The notes: a model not told the origin generated them from the sequence alone. 64,000 bases of DNA from an uncultured Gemmatimonadales bacterium (GCA_963779755.1 CAVZZO010000001.1:1120001-1184000); one strand, 5' to 3'. Counted from the stretch's first letter, positions 5,619-49,017 are shown. Translations and numbers: made by a program.

Positions 5619-5669
5619 GGCGCCTCTAAGTAACTCGGTTGTAAGGGTTTCCGCGCACGTATATATTCC

Positions 5670-12912: not shown

Positions 12913-12976
12913 TTTTCCGGTCCGCTCCGCACTTTCCCGATCCCACCCCGCCGGCGGCGTGCTGGTAGCCTGGGGC

Positions 12977-13624: not shown

Positions 13625-13704
13625 CGGTCCGGGGCCGGTCCGTACTTTAGAACGATGGCGTAAGCCCTTGTCAATTCTCACTCTCCGACAATTCCCAAGA
13701 ATCG

Positions 13705-16535: not shown

Positions 16536-16552
16536 CCACCAGGAGCTGAGGC

Positions 16553-27968: not shown

Positions 27969-28430
27969 ATGGCCACCACCCTGGAGCGCAGCGCCGGGCT
28001 GCTCCTCGATCTCGGCCCCCGGGTCGTCGATCTGCTGCGCGAGGACGTCCGCAGCCGGCTTCCCGGAGGGATCTCCCTGCCACAGTTCCGGGCGCTTGCC
28101 CTGGCGCGCCGGCGCCCGGGGTCGTCGCTCGGCGAGCTGACGCGGCAACTCGGCGGCTCGACCCCCGGCATGAGCCGCCTGGTGGAGGGCCTGGTCCGGC
28201 GCGGCCTCATGGCCCGTAGTCCCGTCCCGGGAGACCGGCGGCGGATTGCCTTGTCACTAACGCCCGCCGGCTTGCGTCTGGTGGAAACCGTCCGGCGGCG
28301 GGGCCGCCGGCGCCTCTCCCGTGTGCTGGCCGCCGTGCCGGAGCGGCATCGGACCGACATGGAGCGCACCCTGATCCGGCTGGTGGATGTGATCCGCAAC
28401 CATCCTCTCTCCCCGGCGGAACTCAGGTGA
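27969..28430 (+). CDS. MarR-family regulator
   Basis: SLPQFRAL, MSRLVEGLVRRGL, DRRRIALSLTPAG. Confidence 0.9.
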   Translation: MATTLERSAGLLLDLGPRVVDLLREDVRSRLPGGISLPQFRALALARRRPGSSLGELTRQLGGSTPGMSRLVEGLVRRGLMARSPVPGDRRRIALSLTPAGLRLVETVRRRGRRRLSRVLAAVPERHRTDMERTLIRLVDVIRNHPLSPAELR

Positions 28431-29896: not shown

Positions 29897-31092
29897 CCCT
29901 CCCCGCCCGGCTCGGTTCGATTTCGGCCGCGCTCCTCGCTGCCGTTGCCCTCTCCGCCTGCGGGCAGAAGGCGTCGCCTCCGCCGCCGCCTACTCCGGTG
30001 TCGGTCGGGCCGGTGCGCCGGCAGCCGGTTCCCCTCGAACTGCAGGCGACGGGGACGGTCGAGCCGCTCCAGACGGTGGCGATCGAGCCGCAGGTGACCG
30101 GGCCGATCACCCGGATCTACTTCAGCGAAGGCGCGGAGGTAAAGGAAGGACAGCCGCTCTTCCAGATCGACCCGCGCCCGTTCCAGGCGGCGCTCCAGCA
30201 GGCCGAAGCCGAGCTGCGGCGCGACCGGGCCATGGCCGCCAACGCGGTGGAGGACGCAAAGCGCTACGCCGAGCTGGCGAGCAAGGAATATGTGACGGCG
30301 CAGCAGTATGGCCAGGCGAAGACCTCGGCCGCGGCGGCCGAAGCCACGGCCGCCGCAAGCGAAGCGGCGGTGGAACAGGCGCGGCTCAACCTCCAGTACG
30401 CCAGGATCCGGGCGCCGATCGCCGGGCGCACCGGCAACCTGATGGTGCGGGAGGGGAACCTGGTGCGTGCCAGTCAGTCCACTCCGCTGGTGACGATCAA
30501 CCAGCTCCGCCCGATCCTGGTGCGCTTCGCGGTGCCGGCGGAGAACCTGCCGGCGATCCGGCGATTCCGCGATCGGGGCGCCGTACCGGTGACGGTCGTG
30601 CCGACCGGGGCCGGCGACACCGCGGCGGGCGCTCCCGCCGGACTCGGGCTGGCAGGGGACGCCGCGGGGAGCCTGGACGGGCCGGCGAGCCCGGCCCCGT
30701 CGGGCGGCGCGAGCGAAGGGACGCTCACGTTTCTGAACAACGCGGTGGACACGACCACGGGGACGATCCTGCTCAAGGGTACCTTCCGGAACAGCGACGG
30801 CGCGCTCTGGCCGGGCGAATTCGTGAACGTGCGGCTGCGGCTCGCGATCGACACCGCGCTCACGGTGCCCGCCGCCGCGGTGGTCTCGGGCCAGCAGGGC
30901 ACCTACGTCTTCGTCGTGCAGGGCGATGGCACGGTGGCGCAGCGGCCGGTGGCGGTGGATCGGACCCAGGGCGACCTTGCCGTCGTCCGCGGCGACCTGC
31001 AGGCCGGCCAGCGGGTGGTGACCGACGGTCAGCTACGTCTCCGTCCGGGCGCCAAGGTGCAGATCAAGCAAGCGGAACAGGCCAGCCCATGA
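29893..31092 (+). CDS. RND membrane fusion protein (MdtA-like)
   Basis: Lipobox LSA|C; EGAEVKEGQPLFQIDPRPF, IRAPIAGR, VDTTTGTI, LWPGEF. Confidence 0.93.
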   Translation: MTLPARLGSISAALLAAVALSACGQKASPPPPPTPVSVGPVRRQPVPLELQATGTVEPLQTVAIEPQVTGPITRIYFSEGAEVKEGQPLFQIDPRPFQAALQQAEAELRRDRAMAANAVEDAKRYAELASKEYVTAQQYGQAKTSAAAAEATAAASEAAVEQARLNLQYARIRAPIAGRTGNLMVREGNLVRASQSTPLVTINQLRPILVRFAVPAENLPAIRRFRDRGAVPVTVVPTGAGDTAAGAPAGLGLAGDAAGSLDGPASPAPSGGASEGTLTFLNNAVDTTTGTILLKGTFRNSDGALWPGEFVNVRLRLAIDTALTVPAAAVVSGQQGTYVFVVQGDGTVAQRPVAVDRTQGDLAVVRGDLQAGQRVVTDGQLRLRPGAKVQIKQAEQASP

Positions 31093-34000: not shown

Positions 34001-34187
34001 TGCCGGCGCGGAATCGCGGCGGCCGCTCGGCGTGGCGGTAGTGGGCGGCCTCGCTTTCTCGCAGATCATCACGCTCTACATCACCCCCGTGGTCTATACC
34101 TATCTGGACGCCTTCCAGCGGAAGGTCGGACGGAAACGGGCGGATGAGCCCGTCGTCGCCGTCGAAGAGCTGCCGGCCGCATTGTAG
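31089..34187 (+). CDS. RND efflux permease (MdtB/MdtC-like)
   Basis: FIRRPV, GFVVDDAIVMLEN, GLVKKNAIMMIDFA, RFRPIMMTT. Confidence 0.95.
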   Translation: MNIAGLFIRRPVMTTLVMVGILLFGIVAYRQLPVSDLPTVDYPTINVRASLPGASPETMAASVATPLEKSFSTIAGLDAMTSSSSQGSTSLTLQFTLDRNVDDAAQDVNAAISKTLRQLPQGMLPPSYSKVDPSASPILYYALRTSTLPLPQLDEYAETNLAQQLSTIDGVAQVQVYGSQKYAVRIQLDPQQLALRNIGIDQVAQAVSAGNANLPTGTLWGTDKAYSVESNGQLNDAADFGRLIVAYRDGAPVRLRDLGRVIDSVQDTKSAGWYNGERAIVLAIQRQPGTNTVAVAQRVRAAIERLKPQLPASVDIERLYDRSDSIQASVSDVKVTLFITLCLVVMVIFLFLRNIRATVIPSLALPMSLVGTFGVMHLLGYSLDNLSLMALTLSVGFVVDDAIVMLENIVRHIERGEGVMEAALKGSREIGFTILSMTMSLVAVFIPVLFLGGLIGRLFHEFAVTIGIAILVSGFVSLTLTPMLCSRWLKPHPKHERHGRVYQAIERGWVGALRWYERTLGWVMDHRPLTMAFSLVILLASIGLAVIIPKGFIPSEDQGQLFATTEVAEGTSFDNMMQHQLAAMNVVEQDSAVRGFMSFIGGGNQGRLFMHLRPRSERDLSADQVARELTAKLNSIAGLQAFVVNPPPINIGGRASKSQYQFTLQGSDIQELYQGAAALEARMRQIKGLTDVTSDLQIKNPKIQVTIDRDRAAALGIDATQVESALYNAYGARQVSTILTPSNQYWVVMELLPQYQRDLSALNLLHITGRNGEAVPLGSLAKFTPTTGPLSINHSGQLPSVTLSFNLESGMSLGEATAGVEQAARQVLPSSITTGFSGTAQAFQQAQQGLLMLLILAIVVIYLVLGILYESFIHPLTILSGLPFAGFGALLVLLVFHMELSVYAFVGIIMLIGLVKKNAIMMIDFAIEAERSGGLGAREAILQACRVRFRPIMMTTMAALMGTLPIALGAGAGAESRRPLGVAVVGGLAFSQIITLYITPVVYTYLDAFQRKVGRKRADEPVVAVEELPAAL

Positions 34188-34423: not shown

Positions 34424-37400
34424 ATGAACAGAAACCTGGTCGGGATCATACGACGCGGCATCCGCGCCGTCCTGCTGGCCGCGCTGCTTGGTACGGGGGT
34501 GGCCGCCGCCGCCGCCGCCCAGGCAACGGGAAAGGTGGAGGGAACTATCCGGGATGAGGCGGGAGCGCCCATTCCCAGCGCGGAAGTCATCATCGTCAAT
34601 ACCAGCTTCCACACGGTCGCCAATAATCAGGGGTACTACTTCTTCAACAATGTCCCCAGCGGTACCGTCGCCATCCGCGCCGCCTTCGTCGGCTACAAGG
34701 CCGCGGAGGTCCGGGACGTCCGCGTGCTGGCGGGCCAGACGCTGACCCAGAATATCCAGCTGCACAGCACGCCGGTCGCCCTGCCGGACGTCGAGGTGTC
34801 GGTGGCGGTAACACCGCTGGTCCCGCGCGACGCCGTGACCACCAAGCAGACGGTCCTGGGCCCCTATCTGAACGGGCTGCCGCTGGACCGCGCCGCCCAG
34901 GCGCTGCTGGAGGTGCCGGGCGTGGTGGGAAATCCTACCGGCACGGCGATCTCCATCCGCGGCGGCCGGACCGACGAGGCGGCGGTCTACATCGACGGCG
35001 TTCCCGCCACGCCGGGTTACCGGGGAAATGCCTTCGCCAGTTCCCGCGGCACCAGCGTCAGCGTCAGCACCGCGGCGGTCAGCGAGCTGTCCGTGACCAC
35101 CGGCGCCACCTCCTCCGAGTTCGGCAACGCACAGTCCGGCGTCATCCAGTACCAGACGCGCAGCGGCGGCAGCAGCCTGCAGGGGCGGCTCGGCTACGAG
35201 AGTGACGAGCCCTTCGGCACCAGCCACAGCGTCGGATTCAATCGCCTGCAGGCCAGCCTCGGGGGGCCGCTCTACCGCCGCCTGACGTTCTTCGTCTCCG
35301 GCGTGCTGGAAGGCCGGGCCTCCATCGTGCCCGGGGCCGACGCGCTGCAGACCCCCGTGTTCGTCCCGGCCGGGGTGGATACCACCGTGGCGGTGCCCAG
35401 CGCCCTGGGCGATCCTCTCGCCGACACCACGTTCGTCGGCGTGCAGAAGTTCGCCCTGTACCGCGGGGATTGCTCCGCCTTCGCCGGCAGCGCCAACAGC
35501 GGCATCGCGTCCAACTATGGCGTCTCCTGCCAGGGCATTCGGACCCCCTACAGCGCCAGCACCATCTACGAGCTGAGTTCCAAGCTCAACTACAGTTACG
35601 GCGACGGCAGCCGGGTGGCGCTGAGCTACCTGTCCAGCCGCAACCAGGGCCGCACGCCCAACGCCTTCCGGATGCTCGATCCGCAGGACCTCGGCGGCTT
35701 CCGGGCCTGGAGCGATTACTTCACGCTCAACTGGTCGCAGAACCTGGCGCGATCCTCGGAACGGGCGCTGGCATTGGAGGCCAGCCTCGGCCTGCAGACG
35801 GACCATACCATCGCGGGACCGCTGACCCGCTCCTCGGAGCTGGGCAGCCGCAACCCGACCGGCGGATTTCTGCTCGGCAATCTCGGCTTCCAGTGGGATT
35901 TCGGGAACTTCCCCGTGAACCAGGAACTGGTAGATAACTATCGCCAGAACATTCCGGGCTCCCGCCGCTCACCGCTCGATCTCGAGAACCGGGATCAATA
36001 CGGGCAGCTCGGTCCCTATCGCAACAGCCCCTACGGCATCGACCAATCGCTCATCAACGGGCAGATCTTCGCCACCGGCGGCTACGCCTCCACCACCAGG
36101 CTGGTGCTCTATCGTGAGCAGCGGATGATCGGGAAGGCGGGGCTCGACTGGCAGCTCGACCGCTACAATCGCATCAAGCTGGGCGGGGAATACACGCACT
36201 ACAGCATCGCCAACTACTCCCATGCCCTCACCAGCCAGGCGTTCTCCGACGTATTCATCGAGTCGCCTGTCCGGTACGACTTGTACGCCGAGGACCGCCT
36301 GGATCTCGGGGATGTGGTCGTGGTCGGCGGGTTGCGGTACGATCGCTACCATTCCAACGCCGCCCGTCCTTACGTGCTCGACACCGTGTCTACCCACCCC
36401 ACCTTCGGCCAGTACAGCTACTTCCCCCGCCCCAACAGCTACGGCGCGGGCGGTGCGGAGCTGAACGGCCAGCCGCTGGTGAAGTATGTGCGGGACCCGG
36501 CCCACGAGTACGTGAGCCCGCACGTGCAGGTGTCGTTCCCCGTGTCCGACCGGACCAACTTCCGTCTCTCCTATGCCCACCAGGTGCAGGCGCCCGATTT
36601 CGGGCTGGTCCTGGGCGGCATCAACACCGATATCTCGGTGACCAACACCAATCACGTCTACGGCGCCGACCTCGATTTCGGCAAGACCATCACCTTCGAG
36701 TTCGGCGTCCGGCATGCCTTCAGCGACGACATGGTGCTGGACATCTCCGCCTACAACAAGGACAACCTGTCCAATGCCGCGGGGCGGCTGATCAGCCTGC
36801 CCGATCCCCAGCGGCTGGGGGCGAATGTCGATCTGCGCATCATGACCACGGCCGATTTCGGGAACACCCGGGGCGTGGACGTGCGGCTGGACCGCCGGAT
36901 CGGCCGGCTGTTCAACGGGGTGATTGCCTACACCTTCCAGCAGGCCAGAAACACCGGATCCAATCCGTTCACCTACATCAATTTCGGTTCGCGGATCGTG
37001 AGCCAGCTCTCGGGCGGCAATCAGCCGCCCCCGCAGGCCATCTTTCCGACCGCCAACAGCCGGCCGCACAACCTGACCGGATCGTTCGCGCTCAACTTCC
37101 CCTCCGACTGGAAGGAAGGCACCGCGCTGGGGGCCATCCTGGGCCGCGCGGGGGTGACCGCCGTGTTCCGCTACTCCAGCGGCACCGCCTATACCCGCTG
37201 CCCGGCCGAGACCGGCAACGAAGGGGTCCTGTCCGGGCAGGTATGCTCGCGTCAGTTCGCCGGCGACTTCTTCGGCGCCCGGACGCCCTCGTTCAAGCAG
37301 TTGGACATGCGGTTTACCAAGGGCTTCGATCTGCGCGGCCTGGGCATCACCGCCTATCTGGACGCGCGGAATATTCTGAACTTCCGTAACATCCTGACGG

Positions 37401-37774
37401 TCTTCACGACCACCAACGATATCGTCAACGCCGCCGAGCAGGCGCAGACCTTCAGCGGCGACAGCGCGAGCTTCGCCGACGAAGCGCGAGCCTCCGGCAC
37501 CTACAATTCCTCGGACGGTTCCATCGATCTGTCGTTCGGCGGCGCTGTGACCTCGGGGTGCGGGGCCTGGGTCAATGCCCAGAACCGGCCCTCGGCGCCC
37601 GACTGTGTCTACCTGATCCGGGCGGAAGAGCGCTACGGCAACGGCGATCACCGCTTCACCGTGGCCGAGCAGGCGCGGGCCTCCCACGCACTGTACCTGG
37701 CGGCGGGACGGGGTGTCAGCGCCTTCACGGCCGCGCCCCGGCTCATGCGGCTGGGGGTGGAGGTGGATTTCTAG
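34424..37774 (+). CDS. Large TonB-dependent receptor with CarboxypepD_reg-like N-domain
   Basis: Signal peptide …AAAA|QATG; GYYFFNNVPSG; plug IRGGRTDE…YIDG…EFGNAQSGVI; SPHVQVSFPVS; C-terminal Phe (GVEVDF). Confidence 0.9.
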   Translation: MNRNLVGIIRRGIRAVLLAALLGTGVAAAAAAQATGKVEGTIRDEAGAPIPSAEVIIVNTSFHTVANNQGYYFFNNVPSGTVAIRAAFVGYKAAEVRDVRVLAGQTLTQNIQLHSTPVALPDVEVSVAVTPLVPRDAVTTKQTVLGPYLNGLPLDRAAQALLEVPGVVGNPTGTAISIRGGRTDEAAVYIDGVPATPGYRGNAFASSRGTSVSVSTAAVSELSVTTGATSSEFGNAQSGVIQYQTRSGGSSLQGRLGYESDEPFGTSHSVGFNRLQASLGGPLYRRLTFFVSGVLEGRASIVPGADALQTPVFVPAGVDTTVAVPSALGDPLADTTFVGVQKFALYRGDCSAFAGSANSGIASNYGVSCQGIRTPYSASTIYELSSKLNYSYGDGSRVALSYLSSRNQGRTPNAFRMLDPQDLGGFRAWSDYFTLNWSQNLARSSERALALEASLGLQTDHTIAGPLTRSSELGSRNPTGGFLLGNLGFQWDFGNFPVNQELVDNYRQNIPGSRRSPLDLENRDQYGQLGPYRNSPYGIDQSLINGQIFATGGYASTTRLVLYREQRMIGKAGLDWQLDRYNRIKLGGEYTHYSIANYSHALTSQAFSDVFIESPVRYDLYAEDRLDLGDVVVVGGLRYDRYHSNAARPYVLDTVSTHPTFGQYSYFPRPNSYGAGGAELNGQPLVKYVRDPAHEYVSPHVQVSFPVSDRTNFRLSYAHQVQAPDFGLVLGGINTDISVTNTNHVYGADLDFGKTITFEFGVRHAFSDDMVLDISAYNKDNLSNAAGRLISLPDPQRLGANVDLRIMTTADFGNTRGVDVRLDRRIGRLFNGVIAYTFQQARNTGSNPFTYINFGSRIVSQLSGGNQPPPQAIFPTANSRPHNLTGSFALNFPSDWKEGTALGAILGRAGVTAVFRYSSGTAYTRCPAETGNEGVLSGQVCSRQFAGDFFGARTPSFKQLDMRFTKGFDLRGLGITAYLDARNILNFRNILTVFTTTNDIVNAAEQAQTFSGDSASFADEARASGTYNSSDGSIDLSFGGAVTSGCGAWVNAQNRPSAPDCVYLIRAEERYGNGDHRFTVAEQARASHALYLAAGRGVSAFTAAPRLMRLGVEVDF

Positions 37775-37799
37775 CCGGAAAAAGCCGCCAGGGTAGAAA

Positions 37800-37837
37800 A
37801 AGAGGGAAGCGGACAGGCCGCTTCCCTCTTCTTCTTT
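37800..37837 (+). terminator. Rho-independent terminator
   Basis: AAGAGGGAAGCGG-ACAGG-CCGCTTCCCTCTT followed by CTTCTTT. Confidence 0.8.
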
Positions 37838-38006
37838 CCCCGATCCCGCTCCAGGGGGTACTTAGCTAACTCGTTTAATAGCAAATTCTTGCCACGACGT
37901 CCCGCAGCAGATCCCGGGCCTGAAACATCCAGGCCTCCTTTTACGTTACTACATGAAACACCGGATTTCCCATTTCTCCCGTTGCCGGCGGATCGAGGTC
38001 TCTTCT

Positions 38007-38795
38007 ATGCGACAGTACTGGCTGCGAATCTCCCTCGGCGCTCTGGTGATCTTCGGAGTGGGCATGGTAGGGGTACACGTGGTTCGTGAGGGCCGCAGCA
38101 AGGTCCACATGCTGATGAACAGCGCCGACCCGATTTCCCTCCCGCTCGCGTTCGTGCCTTTCCGCCTGGCCGGAGACAAGCTCGGCAGTATCAAGCACCT
38201 GCGGATCGATCGCAGCGCGCCCGACCGTCTGGACAGTATTCAGCTCACCGTCCAGCTCGATTCGGGCGCACTGGCGTCACGGCTCCAGGACTGCCGCCTC
38301 GGCTCTACCGATGCCCGGTCGATCGGCCCTCAGACCTCGTTCCTCTGCATGTCCCAGGCGGATTCGGCCCGCCTGGACCTGGTGCCGTTCGGCACGGTAC
38401 GGTTCGAACCCTCGGGCGAAGCCCGGCCGCTGCTGTTGCCGGCCGCTATGGTGCGCGAGTGGCACGGCGCCGTGGATTCGGCTGTCCAGGCGGCCCGGGT
38501 GGGCGCCCAGTCCGCCGCGCAGCAGGCCCGGGCGGCGGTGGCGCAGACGCAGGCGCTGCGGGTGCGGCACGGGAATCCGGCGCAGGTGACGGTTCGGGGC
38601 GACAGCGCCGGGGTGGCAATCGAGAGCCGTTCCGACGGGTCGCGCTTCACCTTCCGGGCCGACTCCAGCAGTGCGTTCCTCAGTATTCGCGATGCCCGGG
38701 GCCGCGACGTCGTGCTGTTGCAGGCCGACTCGTCCGGCGCCGTATTCAAGGTGAACGGCGATACCGGCCGGATCCATCCCGTACCCGGTCACTGA
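38007..38795 (+). CDS. Hypothetical membrane-anchored protein
   Basis: N-terminal TM (YWLRISLGALVIFGVGMVG), GAGG SD, host-like codon usage, repeated ADS/GDS strands. Confidence 0.7.
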   Translation: MRQYWLRISLGALVIFGVGMVGVHVVREGRSKVHMLMNSADPISLPLAFVPFRLAGDKLGSIKHLRIDRSAPDRLDSIQLTVQLDSGALASRLQDCRLGSTDARSIGPQTSFLCMSQADSARLDLVPFGTVRFEPSGEARPLLLPAAMVREWHGAVDSAVQAARVGAQSAAQQARAAVAQTQALRVRHGNPAQVTVRGDSAGVAIESRSDGSRFTFRADSSSAFLSIRDARGRDVVLLQADSSGAVFKVNGDTGRIHPVPGH

Positions 38796-38966
38796 GCCCG
38801 GCCGCCGGAGGCGGGTCAGGTCTCCCTGACGTGAAATGGGTAGCGGGCCCATGCCTTACTGTGAGGCGCCTCACTGCTCTGTGGGCGGGGGTCTGATATT
38901 GAAGAATCAGCGGCGCGCCGCATTCCCGGCGCGCCTTTGATTTCACCAGCAGTGGAGCAGCCTGTT

Positions 38967-39218
38967 ATGCCGAGACGGCGGCGTACCGATACGGAAGACA
39001 ACATGGGGGCGGAATACGCCCGGATGCGGGAAGACGAGCGGCATCGCCTCGAGGGCCTGCCCGACTCGCAGCAGCCCGAGGCCAACCACCCGGTGCATCT
39101 GGAAGAGCCCCGGAATCGCGACCGGATGGGCCGGCATTACCAGCCGGAGGATCCCCGCCGCCGGGCCGAGGACCGGCAGGAGGAGGACGAGGCCGGCCCG
39201 GCGGACCGGAAGAAGTAG
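38967..39218 (+). CDS. Small, highly charged hypothetical protein
   Basis: GGAG SD; 83 aa rich in R/E/D. Confidence 0.5.
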   Translation: MPRRRRTDTEDNMGAEYARMREDERHRLEGLPDSQQPEANHPVHLEEPRNRDRMGRHYQPEDPRRRAEDRQEEDEAGPADRKK

Positions 39219-39228
39219 TGCCGCGGGC

Positions 39229-41940
39229 TCAGGGCAGCGAGTCGGTCAGCGCCTTGAGCACCCGCCCGAGCTGATCGATTTCATCTCCATACCGGGCCCA
39301 TTCGCCGGCTCGCTGGGCGGCGAGCGCGCGCTCATAGTGGGAACGTGCCTGGCGGAGGAGACCGGCCTGGGTACCGGCCTGGGCCGCCTCGGGTGGCGGC
39401 GCAGCCGCCTCCGCCGGCTGGGCCGTTTCCGGTTCTGCGCCGAAGAGCCGGCTCAATGCCTGGTCCAGGGTCGCGTCCATCACCACCCGGTTCTGATACG
39501 CCACCACCACCCGCTTGAGTTCCGGGATCTTCCCGCCCTGCGCCCTCAGGTAGAGCGGCTGCACGTAGATCAGCGACTCCTCGATGGGGATGACCAGCAG
39601 GTCGCCCCAGATCACCTCCGAGCCGCGCTGATCCCAGAGGGAGACCTGCCGCGAGATTTCGGTGTCCTGGTTGATCCGGGTTTCGATCTGCTGGGGGCCG
39701 TACACCAGGCTCTGCCGCGGGAAGCGATAGACCATCAGCTGCCCGTAGTTCGCTCCATCGTTCCTCGCCACCATCCACGCCGCCAGGTTGTCCTTGCCCC
39801 GCGGGGTGAACGGCGTCATGAAGATGAACTCGGCCTGCTGCTCCTCCGGCAGCCGCATGATGATATGACGCATGAACGGCCCCGCCTGTTCCCGCTGCTC
39901 CACCGTGGGGATCTGCCACTGGTCTTCCCGGTGATAGAACGCGTCGGGCTGGTCCATGTGGTAGGTGGCGTAGAGCGCGGACTGCAGGCGGTAGATGTCC
40001 TCCGGATAGCGCAGATGGGCCCGGAGGTCGGCCGGCATGGCGCTGAGCGGTTGCAGCAGTCCCGGAAGGAGGCTGGCCCACGCCTGGATGACCGGATCGT
40101 CGGGCGCGGCCAGATAGGCCTGGACGCTCCCGTCATAGGCGTCGATGATCACCTTCACGCTGTTCCGCATGTAGCGGGTGCCGTCCCGCAGCGGCTCCGA
40201 ATAGGGATACCACGCGCTCCGGATGTATCCGTCGAGAATCCACGCCAGGGTGCCGTCGTCCCGCAGCACCAGGTAGGGATCGTTGTCGAAGTCGAGGAAG
40301 GGCAGGGCCGCCTCCGCCCGGCCGCGGATGCTGCGGCGGAAGAGAATCCGGGTGCTGTCGCCCACGTCCTGGGAGAGGAGCAGCTTCAGCGAGCCGAACC
40401 GCAGGGCATAGAGCGACCGCCGGAGCACGCCGCCGACCGCCATCCCGCCCCGGCCCTCGTAGGGATGAAAGACGTTGGTATCTCCCGCCGGATAGTCGAA
40501 CTCGGGCTGCCGGGTGGGTGTCAGCACATAGCTGTCGGTGAGCTCGCCGTAGTAGATGCCGGGCCGGGTCACCGGCAGCGAGACGGTGGAGACGGGCGGA
40601 AGGTTCTTCACGAAGAGCACCGGCAGGCCCTCATCCGTCACCTGATTCACCGGGCTCATGGTGAGCCCCATGCCGTGGGTGAAGGTCAGGTGTTCGTTGA
40701 TGAACGACTGGACCGGCAGCGAGGAGACGTTGAGTTCCCGGGGCGAGAGCAGCACCTGGCGGTACCGGCCTTCGATGGTGTAACGGTCGTCGTCCACGTG
40801 GACGAAGTCGTAATAGGTGCGGATCTCCTGCAGCTGGCCGAAAGTCTGGAGCAGCGGATCGCGGTCCCACAGGCGGACGTTCTCCACCGTCGCCGCATTG
40901 GCCCGGATGTCCTTCAGCGACAGCCGCGCCTCCCCGCTCAGCTCCCGGCTCACCACCCGATCCAGACCCCATGCCTTGCGGGTCGCATCGATGTGCCAGC
41001 GGATCTGCGGCTCCTCGCGGGTCAGCTCGGTGGGGCCGACCACGAATTTCTGTACCGCGGCCGGCAGCAGGCCGAGCAACAGCACGCTGAGCACGATATA
41101 CCCGCCGAGCGCCACCCCCGCGGCCGCCAGCAGCCGGTTGCGGATCTCGCCCGCCACCACCAGAGCGGCGCCCGCCAGGGCCACGATCGCCATGATCCGC
41201 AGGGCGGGGAGAGTGGCGTGCAGATCGGTATAGGCGGCGCCCGCCAGGGGGCCGGTGCTGGCGTAGAGCAGTTCGGGAGCGCGTACCAGCCAGAGTTGCA
41301 CCGCCTGCAGGACGAAGAGCGAGCCCAGCAGCACCGTCAGGTGCCGGGCCGCCGACGGTTCGATCACGCTACGGGCTCGTCGGAGGACCAGGTCGCCCCG
41401 CAGCCAGTAGAGCGGGACGGTCAGAAGCAGGGTGATGAGCAGCAGCGCAAAGAGCCAGGCGAGCGCGCCGTCCAGCAGAGGGAGCCGGAACAGGTAGAAC
41501 CCGATGTCGCGGCCGAAGACCGGATCGGCGGTGCCGAACCGGCCGCCGGCCAGGAAGAGGAGGACGTCCTTCCAGGCGGCGACCGGTGGGAGTGCAAAGG
41601 CCAGCGCCAGCACCACCGCCAGCGGCAGAGACAGGCGGCGCAGGGCCAGCGCGACGTCGAACCGGGGCGCATCGGCCGCGCGGCTCTGGACCAGGACGAG
41701 GTGCGGGGACAGGCCGCGCTGCGCCAGGCGCAGGTTGCCGTAGAGGACCGCGAATGCCAGCAGTCCGGTGCCCCCAAGCAATGCCCCGCGGGTGACCTGC
41801 TCGATGCCGAACATTCGCCCGTAGCCGATGTTCTGGAACCACCACCAGTCGGTGAGGAACGAGGCGAGCGCGGGCACCAGCATGACCGCGGCGAACAGCA
41901 GCAGGACAGCCAGCAGGACAAGACGGCCAGGGCGGCGCAC
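39229..41940 (-). CDS. UPF0182-family membrane protein
   Basis: DWWWF, DPVFGRDIGFYLF, NVRLWD, HLTFTHG, YMRNSVK..IDAYDG, HLRYPED; GTG start after AAGGAGG. Confidence 0.92.
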   Translation of the reverse strand: MRRPGRLVLLAVLLLFAAVMLVPALASFLTDWWWFQNIGYGRMFGIEQVTRGALLGGTGLLAFAVLYGNLRLAQRGLSPHLVLVQSRAADAPRFDVALALRRLSLPLAVVLALAFALPPVAAWKDVLLFLAGGRFGTADPVFGRDIGFYLFRLPLLDGALAWLFALLLITLLLTVPLYWLRGDLVLRRARSVIEPSAARHLTVLLGSLFVLQAVQLWLVRAPELLYASTGPLAGAAYTDLHATLPALRIMAIVALAGAALVVAGEIRNRLLAAAGVALGGYIVLSVLLLGLLPAAVQKFVVGPTELTREEPQIRWHIDATRKAWGLDRVVSRELSGEARLSLKDIRANAATVENVRLWDRDPLLQTFGQLQEIRTYYDFVHVDDDRYTIEGRYRQVLLSPRELNVSSLPVQSFINEHLTFTHGMGLTMSPVNQVTDEGLPVLFVKNLPPVSTVSLPVTRPGIYYGELTDSYVLTPTRQPEFDYPAGDTNVFHPYEGRGGMAVGGVLRRSLYALRFGSLKLLLSQDVGDSTRILFRRSIRGRAEAALPFLDFDNDPYLVLRDDGTLAWILDGYIRSAWYPYSEPLRDGTRYMRNSVKVIIDAYDGSVQAYLAAPDDPVIQAWASLLPGLLQPLSAMPADLRAHLRYPEDIYRLQSALYATYHMDQPDAFYHREDQWQIPTVEQREQAGPFMRHIIMRLPEEQQAEFIFMTPFTPRGKDNLAAWMVARNDGANYGQLMVYRFPRQSLVYGPQQIETRINQDTEISRQVSLWDQRGSEVIWGDLLVIPIEESLIYVQPLYLRAQGGKIPELKRVVVAYQNRVVMDATLDQALSRLFGAEPETAQPAEAAAPPPEAAQAGTQAGLLRQARSHYERALAAQRAGEWARYGDEIDQLGRVLKALTDSLP

Positions 41941-42020
41941 ACGCGCCTCCTTTCCTTCGAGTATCGCAAAGTCGACGTCTGATGCTCGAAGGATAACAGC
42001 CCGGCGCGGGTGCGGCCCCT

Positions 42021-43535
42021 CTACGCCCGGGCCTGCCCGGAGATGGGGTGGCGCGCCGCATGCCGCCGCAGCGCGGGCTGGATGGCCTGGGCCAGCCGGC
42101 CGACGTCCTGGTCGATCTCGCGCGGCGTGCGGCTGCCATAGCCCAGCAGCAATCCGCGCCGGCGGGGCGGCGTCAGAGAGAAGAACGAAACCGGGATGGC
42201 CAGAATGCCGGCGGCCGCGGCCAGCCGGGAGAGCTCCACGTCGGAGTCGCCCTCCGGGAGCCAGGCGATGCACTCCAGGCCGGCCCGGTGGCAGCCCGGC
42301 TGGAGTCGGGGGCCAAAATGCCGCCCGAGGGCCGCGATCAGCGTGTCTCGCCGCTCACGATACACGCTATTCATCCGCCGCAGATGGCGCTCGAAATGCC
42401 CCTGATTCAGGAAATCGGTGGCGGCGCCCTGGTTGGTGAACGGGGGGTGGCTGTCGGCAAACTGCCGCACGGCGGCGAAGCTGTCGACCAGGTCGGGAGG
42501 CAGCACCAGCCAGCCGAGGCGCAGGGCGGGGAAGAGCGAGGTGCTGAAGCTCCCGGCGTGCAATATCCGGCCCGAGCGATCTTCGCCCTGGAGGGCGGGG
42601 AGCCGCGGCGCCTCATACTGGTGGTCTCCGCCGTAGTCGTCTTCCAGCACCCAGTTGCCTCCCGCCTGGGCCAATCGCAGCAGCGCCTGCCGCCGCGCCG
42701 GCGCGAGCGGCACGCCCGTGGGGAACTGGCAGGCGGGAGTGAGATACACCAGCCGGGGCGAGCCGTCGAGGGCCAGTCCACGGTCCACATCCATACCCTT
42801 CTCGTCGACCGGCACGGGGGTGATGCGTGCGTCGGCGGTTGCGAAGACGCCGCGCGCGCCACTGTATCCCGGCGTTTCCAGCCAGACGCTGTCGCCCGGA
42901 TCCAGCAGCACCCGCGCCGCCAGGTCCAGCGCATGCTGGGTCCCCGACACGATACACACCTGATCCAGGTCGCAGCGCACGCCCCGGCTGCGGCGCAGGT
43001 AATCGGCCACCGCGGCGCGCAACGGTCGGTACCCGGCCGGGTCCTGCACATCGAGGGCCGCCGTGCGACGCTGCCGCTCCCGGGCAACCAGCCGCTGCCA
43101 CACCCGCTGGGGGAAGAGGTCCAGCGCCGGGGTCGCCGGCCGGAAGAAGGGGGGAACCTCCACCCCGCGGGGCCAGAAGGACGGCAACCCCGTGATGGTT
43201 TCCAGCCGCCGGGTCCGGACCGGCTGCGGCGGAACCCGCGGCCGGGGCGGCCGGGGCGATGTCGCCATTCCCGCCGCCACGCGGGTGCCCGAGCCGACCC
43301 GGCCCGCTACGTACCCCTCGGCCACCAGCCGTTCGAACGCCTGGACGACCGTGGTGCGGGAAATTCCCAGATCCCGGGCGAGAACCCGGGTGGAGGGGAG
43401 CCGCGATCCCGGCGACACCCGGCCGTTGAGAATTGCCTCGCGCAGCCCGCAGTACAGCTGGCGGTGCAGCGGTTCGGCGCTCTCCCGGTCCAGAGGTACC
43501 AGCAGGAAACGTCCGTCCGGTGATCGACTTCGCAT
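42021..43535 (-). CDS. GntR/MocR (GabR-like) regulator with aminotransferase-like domain
   Basis: RLPSTRVLARDLGISRTTV, EGYV, GSGT, ETPGY, TPACQFPTG, LEDDY; SD AAGGAG. Confidence 0.92.
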   Translation of the reverse strand: MRSRSPDGRFLLVPLDRESAEPLHRQLYCGLREAILNGRVSPGSRLPSTRVLARDLGISRTTVVQAFERLVAEGYVAGRVGSGTRVAAGMATSPRPPRPRVPPQPVRTRRLETITGLPSFWPRGVEVPPFFRPATPALDLFPQRVWQRLVARERQRRTAALDVQDPAGYRPLRAAVADYLRRSRGVRCDLDQVCIVSGTQHALDLAARVLLDPGDSVWLETPGYSGARGVFATADARITPVPVDEKGMDVDRGLALDGSPRLVYLTPACQFPTGVPLAPARRQALLRLAQAGGNWVLEDDYGGDHQYEAPRLPALQGEDRSGRILHAGSFSTSLFPALRLGWLVLPPDLVDSFAAVRQFADSHPPFTNQGAATDFLNQGHFERHLRRMNSVYRERRDTLIAALGRHFGPRLQPGCHRAGLECIAWLPEGDSDVELSRLAAAAGILAIPVSFFSLTPPRRRGLLLGYGSRTPREIDQDVGRLAQAIQPALRRHAARHPISGQARA

Positions 43536-43784
43536 TCGCTCCTTTCCCCCCGCCGAATTGGTATGAGCTTGCCGCGTTCAAGTGGACCGCGCCATCCGTT
43601 GTGTCGCTCCGGGGTGCTTGTGATGCAACGAGTTATCCCACCCGGTGCGGAACAGCGTGCGCCGGTGTGTGTCCCGCGCCGCACCCGGCGTCCGGCTGCA
43701 TGGTCACACCAGCGATAGGGGGACGAATCTTGGTCCGCTCCCCCACACGCTGCGGCAACTACGGGTATCTGAGAGGAAGACACC

Positions 43785-46700
43785 ATGCGAATTACCTGGC
43801 ACTCGGGGAGAATTGCGGCTGCGGCGGGACTCGTCGTGAGCCTGATGGTGGCGGGCGCGGCCGGGGCGGCGGCGAAGCCGGAGCCGGGCGCGCAGGCGCG
43901 TCGGGGCTTCCGCCTCTTCGCCCGGTCGCTGGGCGCCATGACCGTCAACCGCACTTATTGCGGTCTCGATGCCACGGGACAGATCTGCGTGGACTCGCTG
44001 GGGTCCTCCACCATCGGGGGCGGGTTCTGGCCCAAGGGGACGGCCGACCAGTACGTGTTCAACTCGGGGCTCCAGGTGGCCGGGACGATCGGGACGGACG
44101 GCGGTCCCTGGGCGGGCGATACGACGGGGGCCTTCTTCTTCGATCCCAAGGGCACCACCCTGCACGGCGAGCAGGTGACGCCGATCTACAACACGCAGAA
44201 CCCGGACGACGCCGCCTTCATCGCGGCGGGGACGGACAACGCGGCGATGGCGGCCCGCATCCCCAACGCGGACGATACCCGCCTGATCTTCAACCCCCTG
44301 CTGCAGGGCCGCGACAAGGGCTCGCAGGGCGACGTGTGGTGGCTCAGCTGGGACGGCAACCCGGGCCTGGTGGCCGGCCGGCCGCACCCGCTGGGGGTGG
44401 TGGTGGAGCAGCGGGGCCTGGGCTGGAACTACCCCTCGGGCAATCAGGACATCCTGTACTTCATCTACACCTTCTACAACATCACTTCGCTGAACGCCGC
44501 CGACTACGCGGGGGTGCGGCCGGGGATGCGGGAGATCCTGCTGCAGCAGGCCCAGGTCTTCCAGCAGCGCAACGAGGCCTCCTTCGGGGTCAGCATCCCC
44601 GACGGCGGCTATACCATCACCAATCTGTACGCGGCCTTCTCCATGGATGCCGACGTGGCCAATGCGCCGGTGAACTATTCCTCGGTGAATGTGCCGTTCG
44701 CGCTGGGGAACACCTACGACAAGAGCTTCTCGCGCTTCGCGGGCTGGAGCTTCGATCCGACCATCTTCAACCAGCCGGGCCTGTTCTCGGGCACCGGGTT
44801 CGTGGGGGTGAAGTACCTGAAGAGCCCGGAGGATGCCAACGGGAACCAGGTGGGGCTGACGCTCTTCAGCAACACCATCAACGGCGGCGTCTTCGGCGAC
44901 GCCCGGAACACGACGCAGCTGTTCCGCTATCTCTCGGGGCACATCAGCCCCGCGGCGGGCGACCAGAACTGTTCGCTGGACCCGGTGGCGACGCACATCT
45001 GCTACATCAACAACACCTCCGGCGCGGACATGCGGTTCTTCCAGTCGTCGGGGCCGCTGACGCTGGCGCCGGGGGGCTTCGGCTCCATCGTGGTGGCCTA
45101 CATCTTCGCCGCGCCGGCCGCGGCGGGCGGGACGGCGTCCTGCGGGACGGTGGGCTCGACCTGCGACATCAAGCCGGGCAATCTGGCGCTGATCGCGGGC
45201 ATGGATAACCCCACGACCATCGGGGCGCCGGTGGGGGCGTGCCCCGCCTCGGGGGCCTGCGCCTTCGGCGGCAACGTGAACCTGCTGGATTCGATCACGG
45301 GCTTCCTGGGGGCGCGGGACCTGAACAGCAACGACACCCTGTCGCAGGACGAATTCAAGGTGGTGCCGAACTCGCTGCTGGGGAAGGCGCTGGTGGCGCA
45401 GGCGATCTTCGATAACGGGTTCCTGCTGCCGTTCTCGCCGGAGCCGCCGCCGTTCTTCCTGATTCCGGGGGACAACCAGGTGACGGTGATGTGGCGGCCG
45501 TCGTCGAGCGAGCAGGCGGGCGATCCCTTCTACTCGATCGCGAGCCAGGCGACCCTGAACGGGGCGCCCAACCCGCTGTACGACCCGAGCTACCGGCAGT
45601 ACGACGTGGAGGGCTACCGGGTGTACCGGGGCCGGGTGGACGCGCCGAACTCGCTGCAGTTGCTGGCGCAGTTCGACTACGCGGGCACCACCATCCCGGA
45701 CTACCGGGGCCAGATCAATCCGTCCGCGACCTGCGCGCCGGAGCTGGGGGTCACGACGACCTGCGCCACCACGTACGATCCGGTGGACTCGATCAACACG
45801 CCGGGGGTGCAGCTGGCGCTGCACGTGGACGTGCCGCTCTCGGGCCCGATCATCCAGGTGAAGATCGGCGACCGGGTGCTGCTGGCCGACGGGACGGCGC
45901 TGGTGGTGAATGCCGACACGGCAGGGACGGGGGGCGGCGGGTCGTGCGCGCCGTCGAACTGCCCGGAGCTGTCGGATACCGGGGTGCCGTTCGTATACGT
46001 GGATAACACGGTGCGGAACAACTTCCGCTACTTCTACAGCGTGACGACCTTCGACATCAACTCCTTCCAGTCGGGGCCGAGCAACCTGGAGAGCCCGCGG
46101 CTGACCAAGGCGGTGACGCCGGTGGCGCCGGCGGGGAACTACCAGCTGGAAGGCACGATCACCAGCGCTCAGCTGGTGGGCGGCGACGGCACGGTGCTGG
46201 ATCCGAGCCTGCCGCTGCCGACGATCGACCCGACGACGGGCATCTTCAGCGGCCCGTTCCCGCCGGCGAACGCGTGGACCATCGGGTTCGGGGATTTCGT
46301 GGCGTCGGTGCTGAGCCAGCCGGGGAGCTTCTCGGCCACGCTGGACAGCATCCAGCTGGGCTCGCCCTATGACGGCATCCCGCACCAGTACTACTGGACG
46401 GCGCACAGCGGGAACACGACGGCCCAGTTCTCCATTCCGATCACGCAGGACGAGGAGGTCGGCGTGGTGAGCGGGGCGGCACAGTTCGCGGCGGTGCCGG
46501 TGGATGCGAGCCTGGCCAGCCGGTACGGGGGCTCGGCGGGCTATTCGCTGCAGGGCAAGGTGACGATGAAGCTGAGCGGCCCCGATTACGGCCCGCTCTA
46601 CGGCCGCGGCTGCATCAACGGGCATGACGGCTATACCGACGCACCGGGGTGCGCCTACAACGGCAGCCGCTGGTTCGACGGGCCCAGCCCGGCGAACAAT

Positions 46701-47822
46701 GAGACTCAGGCGGCCCCCAACGGGAACAATCCTCCGAATGCGGGCTCCCCGGGCCCGATGGCGGCGCTGTCCAATGCCGGGGCGCTCACCGGCGTGGTGA
46801 ACATCCTGAACACCCAGGCCTATGAGACCGCGGTGGGGGGCGAGTATCGGCCGACGGAAGGGGTGAAGTCGGGGGCCCACCGGGCGGCGGACATGAACGT
46901 GTACTGGGGCAGCGGCGGGACGGTGGACTCGGTGGTGGATGTGACCCACCACGTGCCACTGCGATTCCAGTCGGCCCGGCCGGACACGGTGAACGGGGTG
47001 CCGCGGCAACACGGGGTGAGCGACGGCTGGGGCATCCTGAACCAGTCGGCAGCGCAGCCGTTCGGGACGGGCGTCAACTACGATCGCCGGACCGAGCTCA
47101 CCAACGCGGACATGGGGTGTGTCGAGCCGTTCCGCAGTTACGGCCTGACGTTCTCGTGCGCGACGGCCCAGTACTACCTGAGCCAGACCGCCATCCCGGG
47201 GCCGATCGCCCTCTTCGATCAGGCGCTCTCCGTCTCGCGGACCGCCCCGGCGGCGACCAACAATGGGTTCATCATGTATGTGGCCGGTGATTGGTTCACC
47301 TTCGAGCTGGCCGGCGGCGTGCTGCCGGCGGCGGGCACGGTGTGGACCCTGCGGCAGTACGAGGGCGCGATCCAGGGCGGGACCGGCGCGGGCGCCGGCG
47401 ACCTGGGTCCCTACATGTACTCTCTCCCCGAGGGCGTGCTGCCGCTGACGGCGGTGGGGGTCTCGCTGCAGGTGAGCTACGACGTGATCAACCAGGTGAA
47501 CGCGCCGACGGGGAACGACCTGAGCAAGGTCCACACGGTGCCGGATCCGTACTACGTGACCAACGCCTACGAGCAGACCACGGACACCAAGATCATCAAG
47601 TTCGTGAACCTGCCGCAGGACTGCATCATCCGGATCTACTCCTCGAGCGGGGTGCTGGTGCAGCTGCTGGAGCACCACAGCTCGCAGTTCGGCGGCGAAG
47701 AGACCTGGAACGTTCGCAACCGGAACAACCAGGTGGTCGCCAGCGGGGTGTACTTCTACCACGTCGAGGCGGGGAATGCCCGGCGGGTGGGGCGCTTCAC
47801 CATCGTCAATTTCGCGCAGTAG
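43785..47822 (+). CDS. Large secreted Cys-rich protein with T9SS-type C-terminal sorting domain
   Basis: Signal peptide; FnIII-like segment (GDNQVTVMW…EGYRVYR…YFYSVTTFD); C-terminus VPDPYY…IIRIYSSSGVLV…WNVRNRNNQVVASGVYFYHV…GRFTIV. Confidence 0.85.
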   Translation: MRITWHSGRIAAAAGLVVSLMVAGAAGAAAKPEPGAQARRGFRLFARSLGAMTVNRTYCGLDATGQICVDSLGSSTIGGGFWPKGTADQYVFNSGLQVAGTIGTDGGPWAGDTTGAFFFDPKGTTLHGEQVTPIYNTQNPDDAAFIAAGTDNAAMAARIPNADDTRLIFNPLLQGRDKGSQGDVWWLSWDGNPGLVAGRPHPLGVVVEQRGLGWNYPSGNQDILYFIYTFYNITSLNAADYAGVRPGMREILLQQAQVFQQRNEASFGVSIPDGGYTITNLYAAFSMDADVANAPVNYSSVNVPFALGNTYDKSFSRFAGWSFDPTIFNQPGLFSGTGFVGVKYLKSPEDANGNQVGLTLFSNTINGGVFGDARNTTQLFRYLSGHISPAAGDQNCSLDPVATHICYINNTSGADMRFFQSSGPLTLAPGGFGSIVVAYIFAAPAAAGGTASCGTVGSTCDIKPGNLALIAGMDNPTTIGAPVGACPASGACAFGGNVNLLDSITGFLGARDLNSNDTLSQDEFKVVPNSLLGKALVAQAIFDNGFLLPFSPEPPPFFLIPGDNQVTVMWRPSSSEQAGDPFYSIASQATLNGAPNPLYDPSYRQYDVEGYRVYRGRVDAPNSLQLLAQFDYAGTTIPDYRGQINPSATCAPELGVTTTCATTYDPVDSINTPGVQLALHVDVPLSGPIIQVKIGDRVLLADGTALVVNADTAGTGGGGSCAPSNCPELSDTGVPFVYVDNTVRNNFRYFYSVTTFDINSFQSGPSNLESPRLTKAVTPVAPAGNYQLEGTITSAQLVGGDGTVLDPSLPLPTIDPTTGIFSGPFPPANAWTIGFGDFVASVLSQPGSFSATLDSIQLGSPYDGIPHQYYWTAHSGNTTAQFSIPITQDEEVGVVSGAAQFAAVPVDASLASRYGGSAGYSLQGKVTMKLSGPDYGPLYGRGCINGHDGYTDAPGCAYNGSRWFDGPSPANNETQAAPNGNNPPNAGSPGPMAALSNAGALTGVVNILNTQAYETAVGGEYRPTEGVKSGAHRAADMNVYWGSGGTVDSVVDVTHHVPLRFQSARPDTVNGVPRQHGVSDGWGILNQSAAQPFGTGVNYDRRTELTNADMGCVEPFRSYGLTFSCATAQYYLSQTAIPGPIALFDQALSVSRTAPAATNNGFIMYVAGDWFTFELAGGVLPAAGTVWTLRQYEGAIQGGTGAGAGDLGPYMYSLPEGVLPLTAVGVSLQVSYDVINQVNAPTGNDLSKVHTVPDPYYVTNAYEQTTDTKIIKFVNLPQDCIIRIYSSSGVLVQLLEHHSSQFGGEETWNVRNRNNQVVASGVYFYHVEAGNARRVGRFTIVNFAQ

Positions 47823-47830
47823 CCACGGCT

Positions 47831-47868
47831 GGACGGGGGGCGCGCCGCGCTGGCGCGTCCCGCCGTCC
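47831..47868 (+). promoter_or_regulatory. Intercistronic GC hairpin between the sorting-domain gene and the porV-like gene
   Basis: GGACGGGGGGCGCGCC…GGCGCGTCCCGCCGTCC with no U-tract. Confidence 0.5.
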
Positions 47869-47889
47869 GCAACCAGGAGATCAGAGACC

Positions 47890-49017
47890 ATGCGTTCTTT
47901 CTCGGCACGACGGTTGCTCCTCGGGGCGGCGCTGCTCGGCGGCCTGCCCGCCGTGGTGGCGGCACAGGCCCCGGAGGTGAACCAGAACAACACGCCGTAC
48001 GGCACCACGGCGGCGGAATTTCTGCTGCTGGGGGCCGGGGCGCGGGGCACCGCGCTGGGGGGGGCCTACAGCTCCATCGCCAGCGACGTGAGCGCCCTCT
48101 ACTACAACCCGGCGGGCGCGGCGCTGATGACCCGGCCGGGGGCCATGGTGGGGACCTATGACTACGTGGCCAACACGCGCTACACCTGGGGCGGGGTGGC
48201 CTTCCCCTTCAGCGGGGGGGCGCGGACCTTCGGGCTGCAGCTGGGCACCTTCGGGTTCAGCGACCAGCCGGTCTACACCGCCGACCAGCCCAACGGGACG
48301 GGGTCGGTGTACTCGGTGAGCGAGACCTTCGCGGGGCTCACCTATGCGGAGAACTTCAGCGACCGCTTCTCGGCGGGCATCACGGCGAAGTTCATCTTCG
48401 ACAAGCTGGGGGATGCCAACGGGCAGGCCCTGGCGGTGGACTTCGGGACCAACTTCCATGCGCTGTTGAGCGGGCACCCGGTGAAGTTCAGCTTCGTGCT
48501 GAGCAACCTGGGGACCGACCTGAGCTACAGCGGCGACGCGCTGAACGCGGGGGTGCCGCGGCAGCCGCTGCCGGGCGAGCAGCCGGTGCCGGGGCTGGAC
48601 CAGCCGGCGCGGCTGCGGACCAAGGGCTTCCCGCTGCCGACCACCTTCCGGGTGGGGCTGGCCTACGACCTGCTGACCGGGGCCAGCAACCGGCTGACGG
48701 TGCTGACCGACTTCAACCAGCCCAATAACAACGCGGCGGGCTTCGTGGTGGGCGGCGAGTGGGCGCTGAACCGGCTGGGCGGCTCGCCCTTCGGGGTGGC
48801 GCTGCGGGGCAGCTACAGCTACAACCCGGCCAACAACCTGACGCCGGTGGACCCGACCACCACGGCGCTGACCGACGAGGAGAACCTCCACGGCCTGGCC
48901 GTGGGCGGGGGGCTGAACTTCCAGGCCGGCACCCTCAACCTCGGCGTCGATTACGCCTGGAAATACCTGGGCGTCCTCGGCGGCACCAACTTCTTCAGCC
49001 TTAACGTCGGCTGGTGA
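47890..49017 (+). CDS. porV: PorV/PorQ-family (UPF0164, FadL-like) outer-membrane beta-barrel
   Basis: Signal peptide VVAA|Q; GTTAAEFLLLGAGARGTALGGA…ALYYNPAG; LPTTFRVG; C-terminal Trp; SD AGGAG. Confidence 0.82.
   Translation: MRSFSARRLLLGAALLGGLPAVVAAQAPEVNQNNTPYGTTAAEFLLLGAGARGTALGGAYSSIASDVSALYYNPAGAALMTRPGAMVGTYDYVANTRYTWGGVAFPFSGGARTFGLQLGTFGFSDQPVYTADQPNGTGSVYSVSETFAGLTYAENFSDRFSAGITAKFIFDKLGDANGQALAVDFGTNFHALLSGHPVKFSFVLSNLGTDLSYSGDALNAGVPRQPLPGEQPVPGLDQPARLRTKGFPLPTTFRVGLAYDLLTGASNRLTVLTDFNQPNNNAAGFVVGGEWALNRLGGSPFGVALRGSYSYNPANNLTPVDPTTTALTDEENLHGLAVGGGLNFQAGTLNLGVDYAWKYLGVLGGTNFFSLNVGW

Follow-up and report, generated by a model that had tools for sequence, protein, structure and literature searches.

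Retention of a secreted protein on an outer-membrane barrel is reported for the PorZ-PorQ and PorU-PorV pairs of T9SS (type IX secretion system), in which the C-terminal sorting domain (CTD) is left uncut (PMC5562754, PMC11285876). Export in this system is described as passing through the SprA translocon on a carrier barrel, and the carrier, together with its cargo, reportedly depends on the GldLM motor for its release (PMC10994853). The presence of SprA across phyla of the Fibrobacterota-Chlorobiota-Bacteroidota (FCB) group has already been published (PMC12611786), and PMC11285876 mentions a possible occurrence of T9SS in Gemmatimonadetes. Surveys built on a ten-component model found it only in Bacteroidetes (PMC4793230), and the text of PMC12635249 infers that it arose within the gliding machinery. 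Here we analyse a stretch of 64,000 nucleotides (the window, contig C1:1120001-1184000) from the genome of a soil bacterium of the Gemmatimonadales (G000; 4.23 Mb, 97% complete), which encodes a TonB-dependent receptor, a secreted protein ending in a T9SS-type CTD (the cargo), a PorV-family barrel and SprA.

The trio of receptor, cargo and barrel is real and conserved, and is apparently an undescribed variant of known parts. Literature searches, in which subscription papers were thinly covered, turned up neither the trio nor any account of what GWxTD does or of T9SS export without a motor. We consider it slightly better than an even chance that the cargo leaves through SprA, is received by a barrel of its own and, remaining uncleaved, acts as a non-catalytic surface partner of the receptor.

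Conservation of the trio

Gene order was compared in the best 80 of 538 genome stretches encoding a relative of the cargo, and adjacency scoring dropped loci with less than 1000 bases upstream (9) or less than 800 bases downstream (6). The receptor lay directly upstream of the cargo in 63 of 71 loci and the barrel directly downstream in 66 of 74. Both were in place in 57 of the 65 scorable loci, showing that the link between receptor and cargo-barrel pair, which a preliminary description had proposed for the window, holds elsewhere. A GWxTD gene followed the barrel in 61/69 related loci; further GWxTD-like proteins are encoded elsewhere in the host genome. When 151 genomes of the phylum were sampled, 36 of 48 full-length receptor matches had a listed PorV gene 3.5-5 kb downstream, the remaining 12 including contig ends and genes outside the matches listed.

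The arrangement extends to distant families, where 17 of 40 PorV-family loci, hand-picked and giving no frequency estimate, were trios with different cargo bodies and a related CTD. One genome (G005) had five trios among six loci examined, a multi-copy pattern typical of uptake loci. A trio is also carried by plasmid pRMAR01 of Rhodothermus marinus (RMAR_RS14120/14115/14110), all three proteins matching our custom profiles, and metagenome relatives of the R. marinus cargo, of whose 48 loci 23 were scorable, were in trios in 21 of these 23 (33-64% GC). On the plasmid (L125, 4998-17477) the trio is flanked by FG-GAP and peptidoglycan-recognition proteins, both with CTD-like ends, and by a serine hydrolase. 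Across 47 loci, co-divergence of cargo domains with receptor or barrel was dominated by shared ancestry, and we gave no weight to the partial correlations of 0.46 between N-domain and receptor and 0.19 between CTD and barrel.

The cargo could instead be a barrel-anchored adhesin or scaffold, co-expressed with the receptor but not docking on it, like type B CTD proteins on PorP/SprF. Its fibronectin type III (FN3) and other all-beta domains would suit such a role, as would the cargo-barrel pairs that stand without a receptor (the operon context in the window, and L058), and cognate pairs of cargo and shuttle are reported for Flavobacterium johnsoniae (PMC12618676). Set against this, the gene directly upstream continues to be the receptor in different phyla and in front of unrelated cargo bodies, and there are receptor-cargo pairs that have no barrel (L037, L076). 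We regard the adhesin as unlikely.

Export signal, proposed anchor and translocon

The four genes proposed by the preliminary description were all found where it had placed them and its identification of each was confirmed, while its interpretation was borne out in part. The 1116-amino acid (aa) TonB receptor is on the same strand as the cargo and ends 6010 bp before it, the ATG of the barrel gene lies 67 bp past the cargo stop codon, and the SprA is full-length. It had also taken the host to be outside Bacteroidota, and the cargo homologues do carry Gemmatimonadales names in databases.

The window receptor contains CarboxypepD_reg (63.4 bits) and Plug (33.1 bits, cut-off 23.9) domains, both above cut-off, and ends in phenylalanine; it did not match the Pfam barrel model. 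On the SusC model TIGR04056 it scored 28.6 bits and its paralogue upstream of the window 37.8, where 368 are needed, and no T9SS-component model of NCBIfam was matched. A putative TonB-box-like stretch lies near residue 120. A tonB-exbB-exbD-exbD cluster is present in the genome. Two more relatives of the receptor are encoded at C3:882079-884952 and C3:898061-900853, neither adjoining a cargo or barrel.

That the cargo ends in a T9SS-type CTD was confirmed by profile and by predicted fold. Its last 109 aa scored 25.0 bits on TIGR04183 (24.4 bits in the genome scan; cut-off 23), and TIGR04131 had no match in the NCBIfam scans. Since the domain passes TIGR04183 while the whole cargo (19.2 bits) is below that cut-off and the type B model CHU_C (20.5 bits) is under its own of 27, the CTD is classed as divergent type A-like. 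In the model (predicted local distance difference test score, pLDDT, 89) it forms a seven-stranded immunoglobulin (Ig)-like fold at the extreme C-terminus, closest to the CTD of PorZ (Z 11.8, root-mean-square deviation (rmsd) 2.2, 89 residues aligned), followed by PorU (Z 10.6) and the CTDs of mirolase (8.6) and NucA (8.1), with unrelated Ig folds at no more than 8.9. It is the best-conserved part of the cargo.

Two models of the whole cargo (pLDDT 88 and 89) divide it into four parts; its signal peptide was judged by eye. The N-terminal supersandwich (residues 46-549) matches 9ju0 (Z 19.3, rmsd 3.1, 253 aligned) and 1lf6 (Z 18.6), and resembles the non-catalytic N-domains of GH15, GH94 and GH116 enzymes and galactose mutarotase-like proteins. 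Among its look-alikes in a structural atlas are Zixibacteria and Fidelibacterota clusters, which are leads only. The second part (residues 548-782) matches titin FN3 (Z 12.1, rmsd 1.9, 97 aligned). The third, D4, is the most variable stretch, with a mean identity of 40% among relatives; it gave no fold match, the listed matches concerning the CTD alone and D4 having been folded within the whole cargo, and its atlas matches were all at or below 0.80, a lack that does not imply a new fold. The cargo did not match SusD. An enzymatic role was rejected because neither Pfam nor the PDB gave a sequence match to the body, none of the domains could be recognised as catalytic and the fold matches span only non-catalytic N-domains of glycoside hydrolases and phosphorylases.

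The barrel belongs to the PorV/PorQ family, scoring 140.4 bits on NF033709 where 90 are needed and covering positions 1-324 of the 326 in that model, and is below the equivalog cut-offs of both PorV (48 vs 250) and PorQ (64 vs 220). There is a very slight chance that it is a FadL-type lipid transporter, that the cargo tail is an ordinary Ig domain and that SprA is not used at all. PorV is related to FadL, as the weak Toluene_X match (PF03349, 14.9 bits) reflects, and the CTD score is barely above cut-off. However, that match is under the required 29.7 bits and the genome's own FadL reaches 187 on the same model, while the best PDB sequence match of the barrel, albeit weak (E 0.011), is PorV of F. 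johnsoniae. Together with the CTD fold, the predicted CTD-barrel complex and the co-occurrence with SprA, both described below where not already given, this means that the FadL reading is already largely refuted and a FadL/TodX identity of the barrel was rejected. The true FadL, which served as the control, is at C1:1013604-1016473 (L128) and is followed by a GDSL lipase.

In a 37-row tree the trio barrels were separate from a clade of PorV-family barrels linked to era (94/86), in agreement with the proposal of a cargo-linked PorV paralogue; it is distinct both from FadL and from the era/porU-linked clade. The deep split of the tree is supported at 91/94 only, the labels of L119 and L121 were assigned by likeness to L114 and L117, and a single origin of the trio barrels is not established since the tree needs two label changes. 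The era-linked clade includes the L118 barrel (genome G006), encoded after a PorU-like C25-CTD gene.

Other barrels of the family occur in different settings. Most members of the era-linked clade examined (L085, L089-L093, L095-L097) are encoded right after era, in families f2 and f7, whose genomes have SprA and few detected CTD proteins; the clade is not represented in G000, where no barrel adjoins era. M6-peptidase/FG-GAP proteins are followed by their own PorV-family barrel, with no receptor, at L114:8615-12885 and L117:8419-12833. The host genome has two PorV-family barrels over cut-off and a third, divergent one at C3:937695-940505 (L127; 297 aa, PorV/UPF0164-like, no Pfam match), which was set aside as a further cargo partner, the preceding gene encoding an HExxH lipoprotein and not a CTD protein.

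A confident interface between CTD and barrel, as had been anticipated, is predicted: folded together in three runs, the mature barrel and the CTD scored 0.92, whereas none of three controls scored above 0.00. Runs shared no less than 87% of contacts, and partner pLDDT was 78 or higher. Of 157 solved pairs 116 reach the mark used, as do 2 of 215 mismatched ones; it applies only roughly here as the alignments were user-supplied. Because solved PorV-CTD complexes exist, the pair may pass by likeness to them.

SprA is a single-copy protein in this genome (TIGR04189, 507 bits, cut-off 200; E 2e-29 against F. johnsoniae SprA), and it co-occurs with the CTD. Within the host family, 41 of 41 TIGR04183-positive genomes have SprA and none of 13 SprA-less genomes has a TIGR04183 match; 45 of 46 genomes with a close receptor also have SprA. 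The Fisher P value (~1e-5) is overstated, as kin are not independent, and the tallies were made by hand. Of 34 trios with listed coordinates, 26 share a contig with sprA, and in all 26 sprA follows on the same strand at a distance of 14-27 kb downstream.

The motor was not found. The preliminary description had noted that PorK/L/M/N genes were missing from the window, and this extends to the whole of G000, in which profile searches detected no GldL, GldM, GldN, PorU or PorP/SprF (PF11751 for the last). The best GldK-like match was rejected as a DinB/FGE-sulfatase protein, only the two cargo CTDs touch the PorU model NF033707 (12.7 of 420 bits) and FlgD_ig matches are under cut-off. With TIGR04183 and two custom profiles, the only CTD proteins detected in this 97%-complete genome are two cargos, one in the window and one upstream of it. 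Among the 151 genomes of the phylum, 125 have the PorV family (115 over cut-off), 120 SprA and 65 TIGR04183, whereas GldL_N, GldM and GldN have no match and GldK none over cut-off (35 partial). As no positive control matched for the Gld models and divergent homologues could be missed, these genes are described as not found rather than absent. Families f10-f12 include 15 genomes with SprA and 24 to 35 or more CTD matches and no motor match; genomes of these families (for example, G005, G006, G012) encode 4-13 PorV-family barrels each, type A CTDs and SprA.

These counts bring the energy of export into question, which is the most surprising side of the unit. It is possible, though doubtful, that T9SS in Gemmatimonadota is motor-less, with SprA and cargo-specific PorV barrels exporting CTD proteins without GldKLMN, serving in G000 only to place barrel-anchored lids on receptors, and representing an older state of T9SS to which Bacteroidota added the gliding motor. 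TonB-ExbBD, acting through the co-encoded receptor, is an improbable candidate for the energy source.

Alternatively, the unit may itself be part of a secretion or envelope-building machine in which a TonB-energised barrel, a PorZ-like surface protein and GWxTD do the work of the GldKLMN energy chain, detaching loaded barrels from SprA. Apart from the missing motor, this would fit the report that release from SprA is the energy-requiring step (PMC10994853), the report that PG0534, a TonB-dependent-receptor-like protein, is essential for T9SS of Porphyromonas gingivalis (PMC5445135), the synteny with sprA and GWxTD, and a CTD that is nearest to PorZ and PorU, both T9SS components. But 16 of 61 SprA-positive genomes of the host family have no close receptor, there are SprA genomes with only era-linked PorV, the many divergent trios per genome in other families are unlike a core machine component, and the receptor matches none of the T9SS-component models. 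On this evidence a machine part is rather improbable.

A split copy in the window and an intact operon upstream

An intact paralogous operon (C1:1101598-1111690) lies ~10-18 kb before the window and its end is ~15 kb from sprA (Table 1). A PepQ-like peptidase gene precedes it. The window holds a lineage-specific, split, derived duplicate and the upstream operon is the primary copy; that the duplication is lineage-specific follows from the window receptor being nearer its paralogue (69-71% identical) than any other full-length match (60% or less).

The paralogues have diverged unevenly. The barrel proteins do not differ between the copies (1124 of 1128 bases agree), nor do the CTDs, and the cargos are mostly 96-100% identical over residues 50-800 and about 45% identical over ~800-1250. 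Thus CTD and PorV are unchanged while receptor and D4 have diverged, and through the window copy the genome has a second receptor and a further cargo whose D4 differs. Another genome (L005/L070) has two complete trios with receptors 74% and D4 76% identical, and CTD and PorV 100%.

The window receptor may or may not be the partner of the window cargo. For this copy, though doubtfully, receptor and cargo-barrel pair could be independent duplicates that have ceased to act together, the cargo serving the upstream receptor or none. The DNA identity of 93-96% in the cargo N-part, CTD and barrel, against 74% in the receptor, would point to duplications that were separate or became homogenised later; transcription of the receptor is separate from that of the cargo-barrel pair, with a terminator-like hairpin between them, and the three intervening genes of the window were not found among the 80 related loci. 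Against independence, the frames of window receptor, cargo and barrel are all intact and full length, and the L005/L070 genome, in which both trios are complete, shows this pattern of divergence too.

Table 1. Features of the window (positions counted from its first nucleotide) and of the intact upstream operon (positions on contig C1)
Feature	Position	Strand	Remarks
SprA/Sov translocon, 2036 aa	5670..11780	+	TIGR04189; single copy in genome
TonB-dependent receptor, 1116 aa	34424..37774	+	Signal peptide, CarboxypepD_reg, plug, barrel with long loops
Terminator-like hairpin, 13-bp	37800..37830	+	Directly 3' of receptor gene; consensus match only
280-aa open reading frame	37953..38795	+	Intervening, outside conserved unit; no family match
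UPF0182 membrane protein	39229..42273	-	Intervening; 866 bits; true start probably downstream of listed start
MocR/GabR-family GntR-aminotransferase regulator	42021..43535	-	Intervening, divergent from cargo gene; family match
Cargo, secreted, 1345 aa	43785..47822	+	Signal peptide, beta-supersandwich, FN3 with insertions, D4, CTD
Cargo beta-supersandwich and linker helix (residues ~46-549)	43920..45431	+	Fold match
Cargo FN3 domain with insertions (residues ~548-782)	45426..46130	+	Fold match
Cargo D4 (residues ~810-1236)	46212..47492	+	Most variable part; candidate specificity domain
Cargo T9SS CTD	47493..47819	+	Divergent type A-like; VPDPYY...SGVYFYH...GRFTIVNFAQ
PorV/PorQ-family barrel, 375 aa	47890..49017	+	Protein identical to upstream copy; predicted CTD binder
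Upstream receptor	C1:1101598-1104924		Intact operon
Upstream cargo	C1:1105003-1108986		Intact operon
Upstream PorV barrel	C1:1109054-1110181		Intact operon
Upstream GWxTD protein	C1:1110239-1111690		Intact operon
PPC-domain protein, lipoprotein-like N-terminus	After GWxTD gene		Intact operon; locus to C1:1113423 (L001, L002)

Terminator-like hairpins, found by consensus matching, numbered 9 in the region against 6.1 in shuffled sequence, and a promoter scan was at chance level. The 280-aa open reading frame has a paralogue at C3:151618-152562. Directly upstream of the window receptor is an RND efflux set (OEP, HlyD, AcrB; 28427-34187, +). The window opens in a large outer-membrane barrel gene cut by its start (OMP_b-brl_4, 217 bits; 3-2843, +); a frame containing lptF/lptG (4068-9095, -) is divergent from sprA, downstream of which are a helix-hairpin-helix (ComEA-like) gene and the type IV pilus genes pilB, pilT and pilC (12959-17755, +).

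Proposed mechanism and comparison with known systems

If the cargo is indeed a surface partner of the receptor, it would cross the inner membrane by its putative signal peptide. The co-encoded PorV-family barrel, docked at SprA, would then catch the CTD, and barrel and cargo would leave the pore together, a step suggested by the modelled CTD fold, the predicted CTD-barrel binding and the route described for F. johnsoniae. As no PorU sortase was found, the CTD would be left uncut and the cargo retained on the barrel, by analogy with PorZ on PorQ. Thus anchored, it may act as a capture or lid protein for the co-encoded receptor, with D4 setting specificity and TonB-ExbBD driving import, as gene order, fold and the pattern of divergence between paralogues suggest. 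The ligand is, at best guess, a glycan or a peptide.

Several findings weigh against this mechanism, which does not account for the release of barrel and cargo from SprA without GldKLMN. In 8 of 71 loci the cargo has no adjacent receptor and in 8 of 74 no adjacent barrel, and lone or tandem cargos occur (L007, L010, L026, L066, L078), including tandem pairs with neither receptor nor barrel. The trio is patchy, this CTD having been found in only 4 of the 13 genomes in a set of relatives, and many SprA-positive genomes have no unit or detected CTD; in family f2, SprA is present in 21 of 31 genomes but TIGR04183 in 4 of 31. The intact operon is mostly single-copy, near sprA and followed by GWxTD, a context that looks as much like envelope housekeeping as a nutrient locus, and none of the neighbours examined could be recognised as a glycoside hydrolase. 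The likeness of the supersandwich to known folds by itself shows no function. In the window, the 6 kb between receptor and cargo hold a hairpin and two genes on the opposite strand (UPF0182 and MocR-family), so that the two do not form a single transcription unit. Finally, G000 has one genuine SusD (PF07980, contig C3), so the unit would be parallel to SusC/SusD and not a replacement for it.

If the proposal is right, surface capture for TonB-dependent import can be built in another way besides the SusD lipoprotein, by secretion and a barrel anchor, and this in hardly studied phyla that abound in soil and sediment. It touches an open question about T9SS, as SprA is present in 120 of 151 genomes, CTD matches number 24 to 35 or more in some of these, and the motor was detected in none. 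A motor-less, older T9SS, if true, would contradict the published inference of an origin within the gliding machinery. Both the capture unit and the motor question are testable, since cultured R. marinus carries the trio on its plasmid.

The canonical T9SS of F. johnsoniae and P. gingivalis, as reported in PMC10994853 and PMC12635249, shares SprA, a PorV-family carrier and the CTD signal with this locus. It differs in that GldK/L/M/N, PorU and PorP were not detected here and that G000 has two detected substrates. PG0534 (PorF) of P. gingivalis is likewise a TonB-dependent-receptor-like barrel tied to T9SS; its likeness to the trio receptor is by description, and PMC5445135 does not describe it as co-encoded with a cargo and barrel.

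Type B CTD proteins and PorP/SprF of F. johnsoniae, according to PMC12618676, resemble the trio in that the cargo gene is linked to its own carrier barrel, which anchors the cargo after export. In contrast, the CTD here is type A-like and the barrel PorV-like, PorP/SprF was not found in G000 and there is no gliding track.

SusC/SusD (RagA/RagB) is alike in having a receptor gene followed immediately by that of a non-catalytic surface protein, in many copies of divergent specificity in some genomes. However, the receptor here fails the SusC model, its partner is a 1345-aa all-beta CTD protein and not a TPR lipoprotein, a predicted barrel anchor replaces the lipid, and contact between the partners is putative.

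The closest likeness in anchoring is to the PorZ-PorQ and PorU-PorV pairs of the P. gingivalis attachment complex, described in PMC5562754 and PMC10947112 as proteins that keep their CTD and are held by a PorV/PorQ-family barrel, and it is the PorZ and PorU structures that the cargo CTD matches best. Unlike these, the cargo has no beta-propeller and is not a C25 sortase, its barrel falls outside both equivalogs, the pair is encoded with a TonB-dependent receptor and no PorU was found in G000. By these analogies, the unit would anchor its cargo as PorZ-PorQ does and probably take up its ligand in the manner of SusC/SusD, while being a member of neither.

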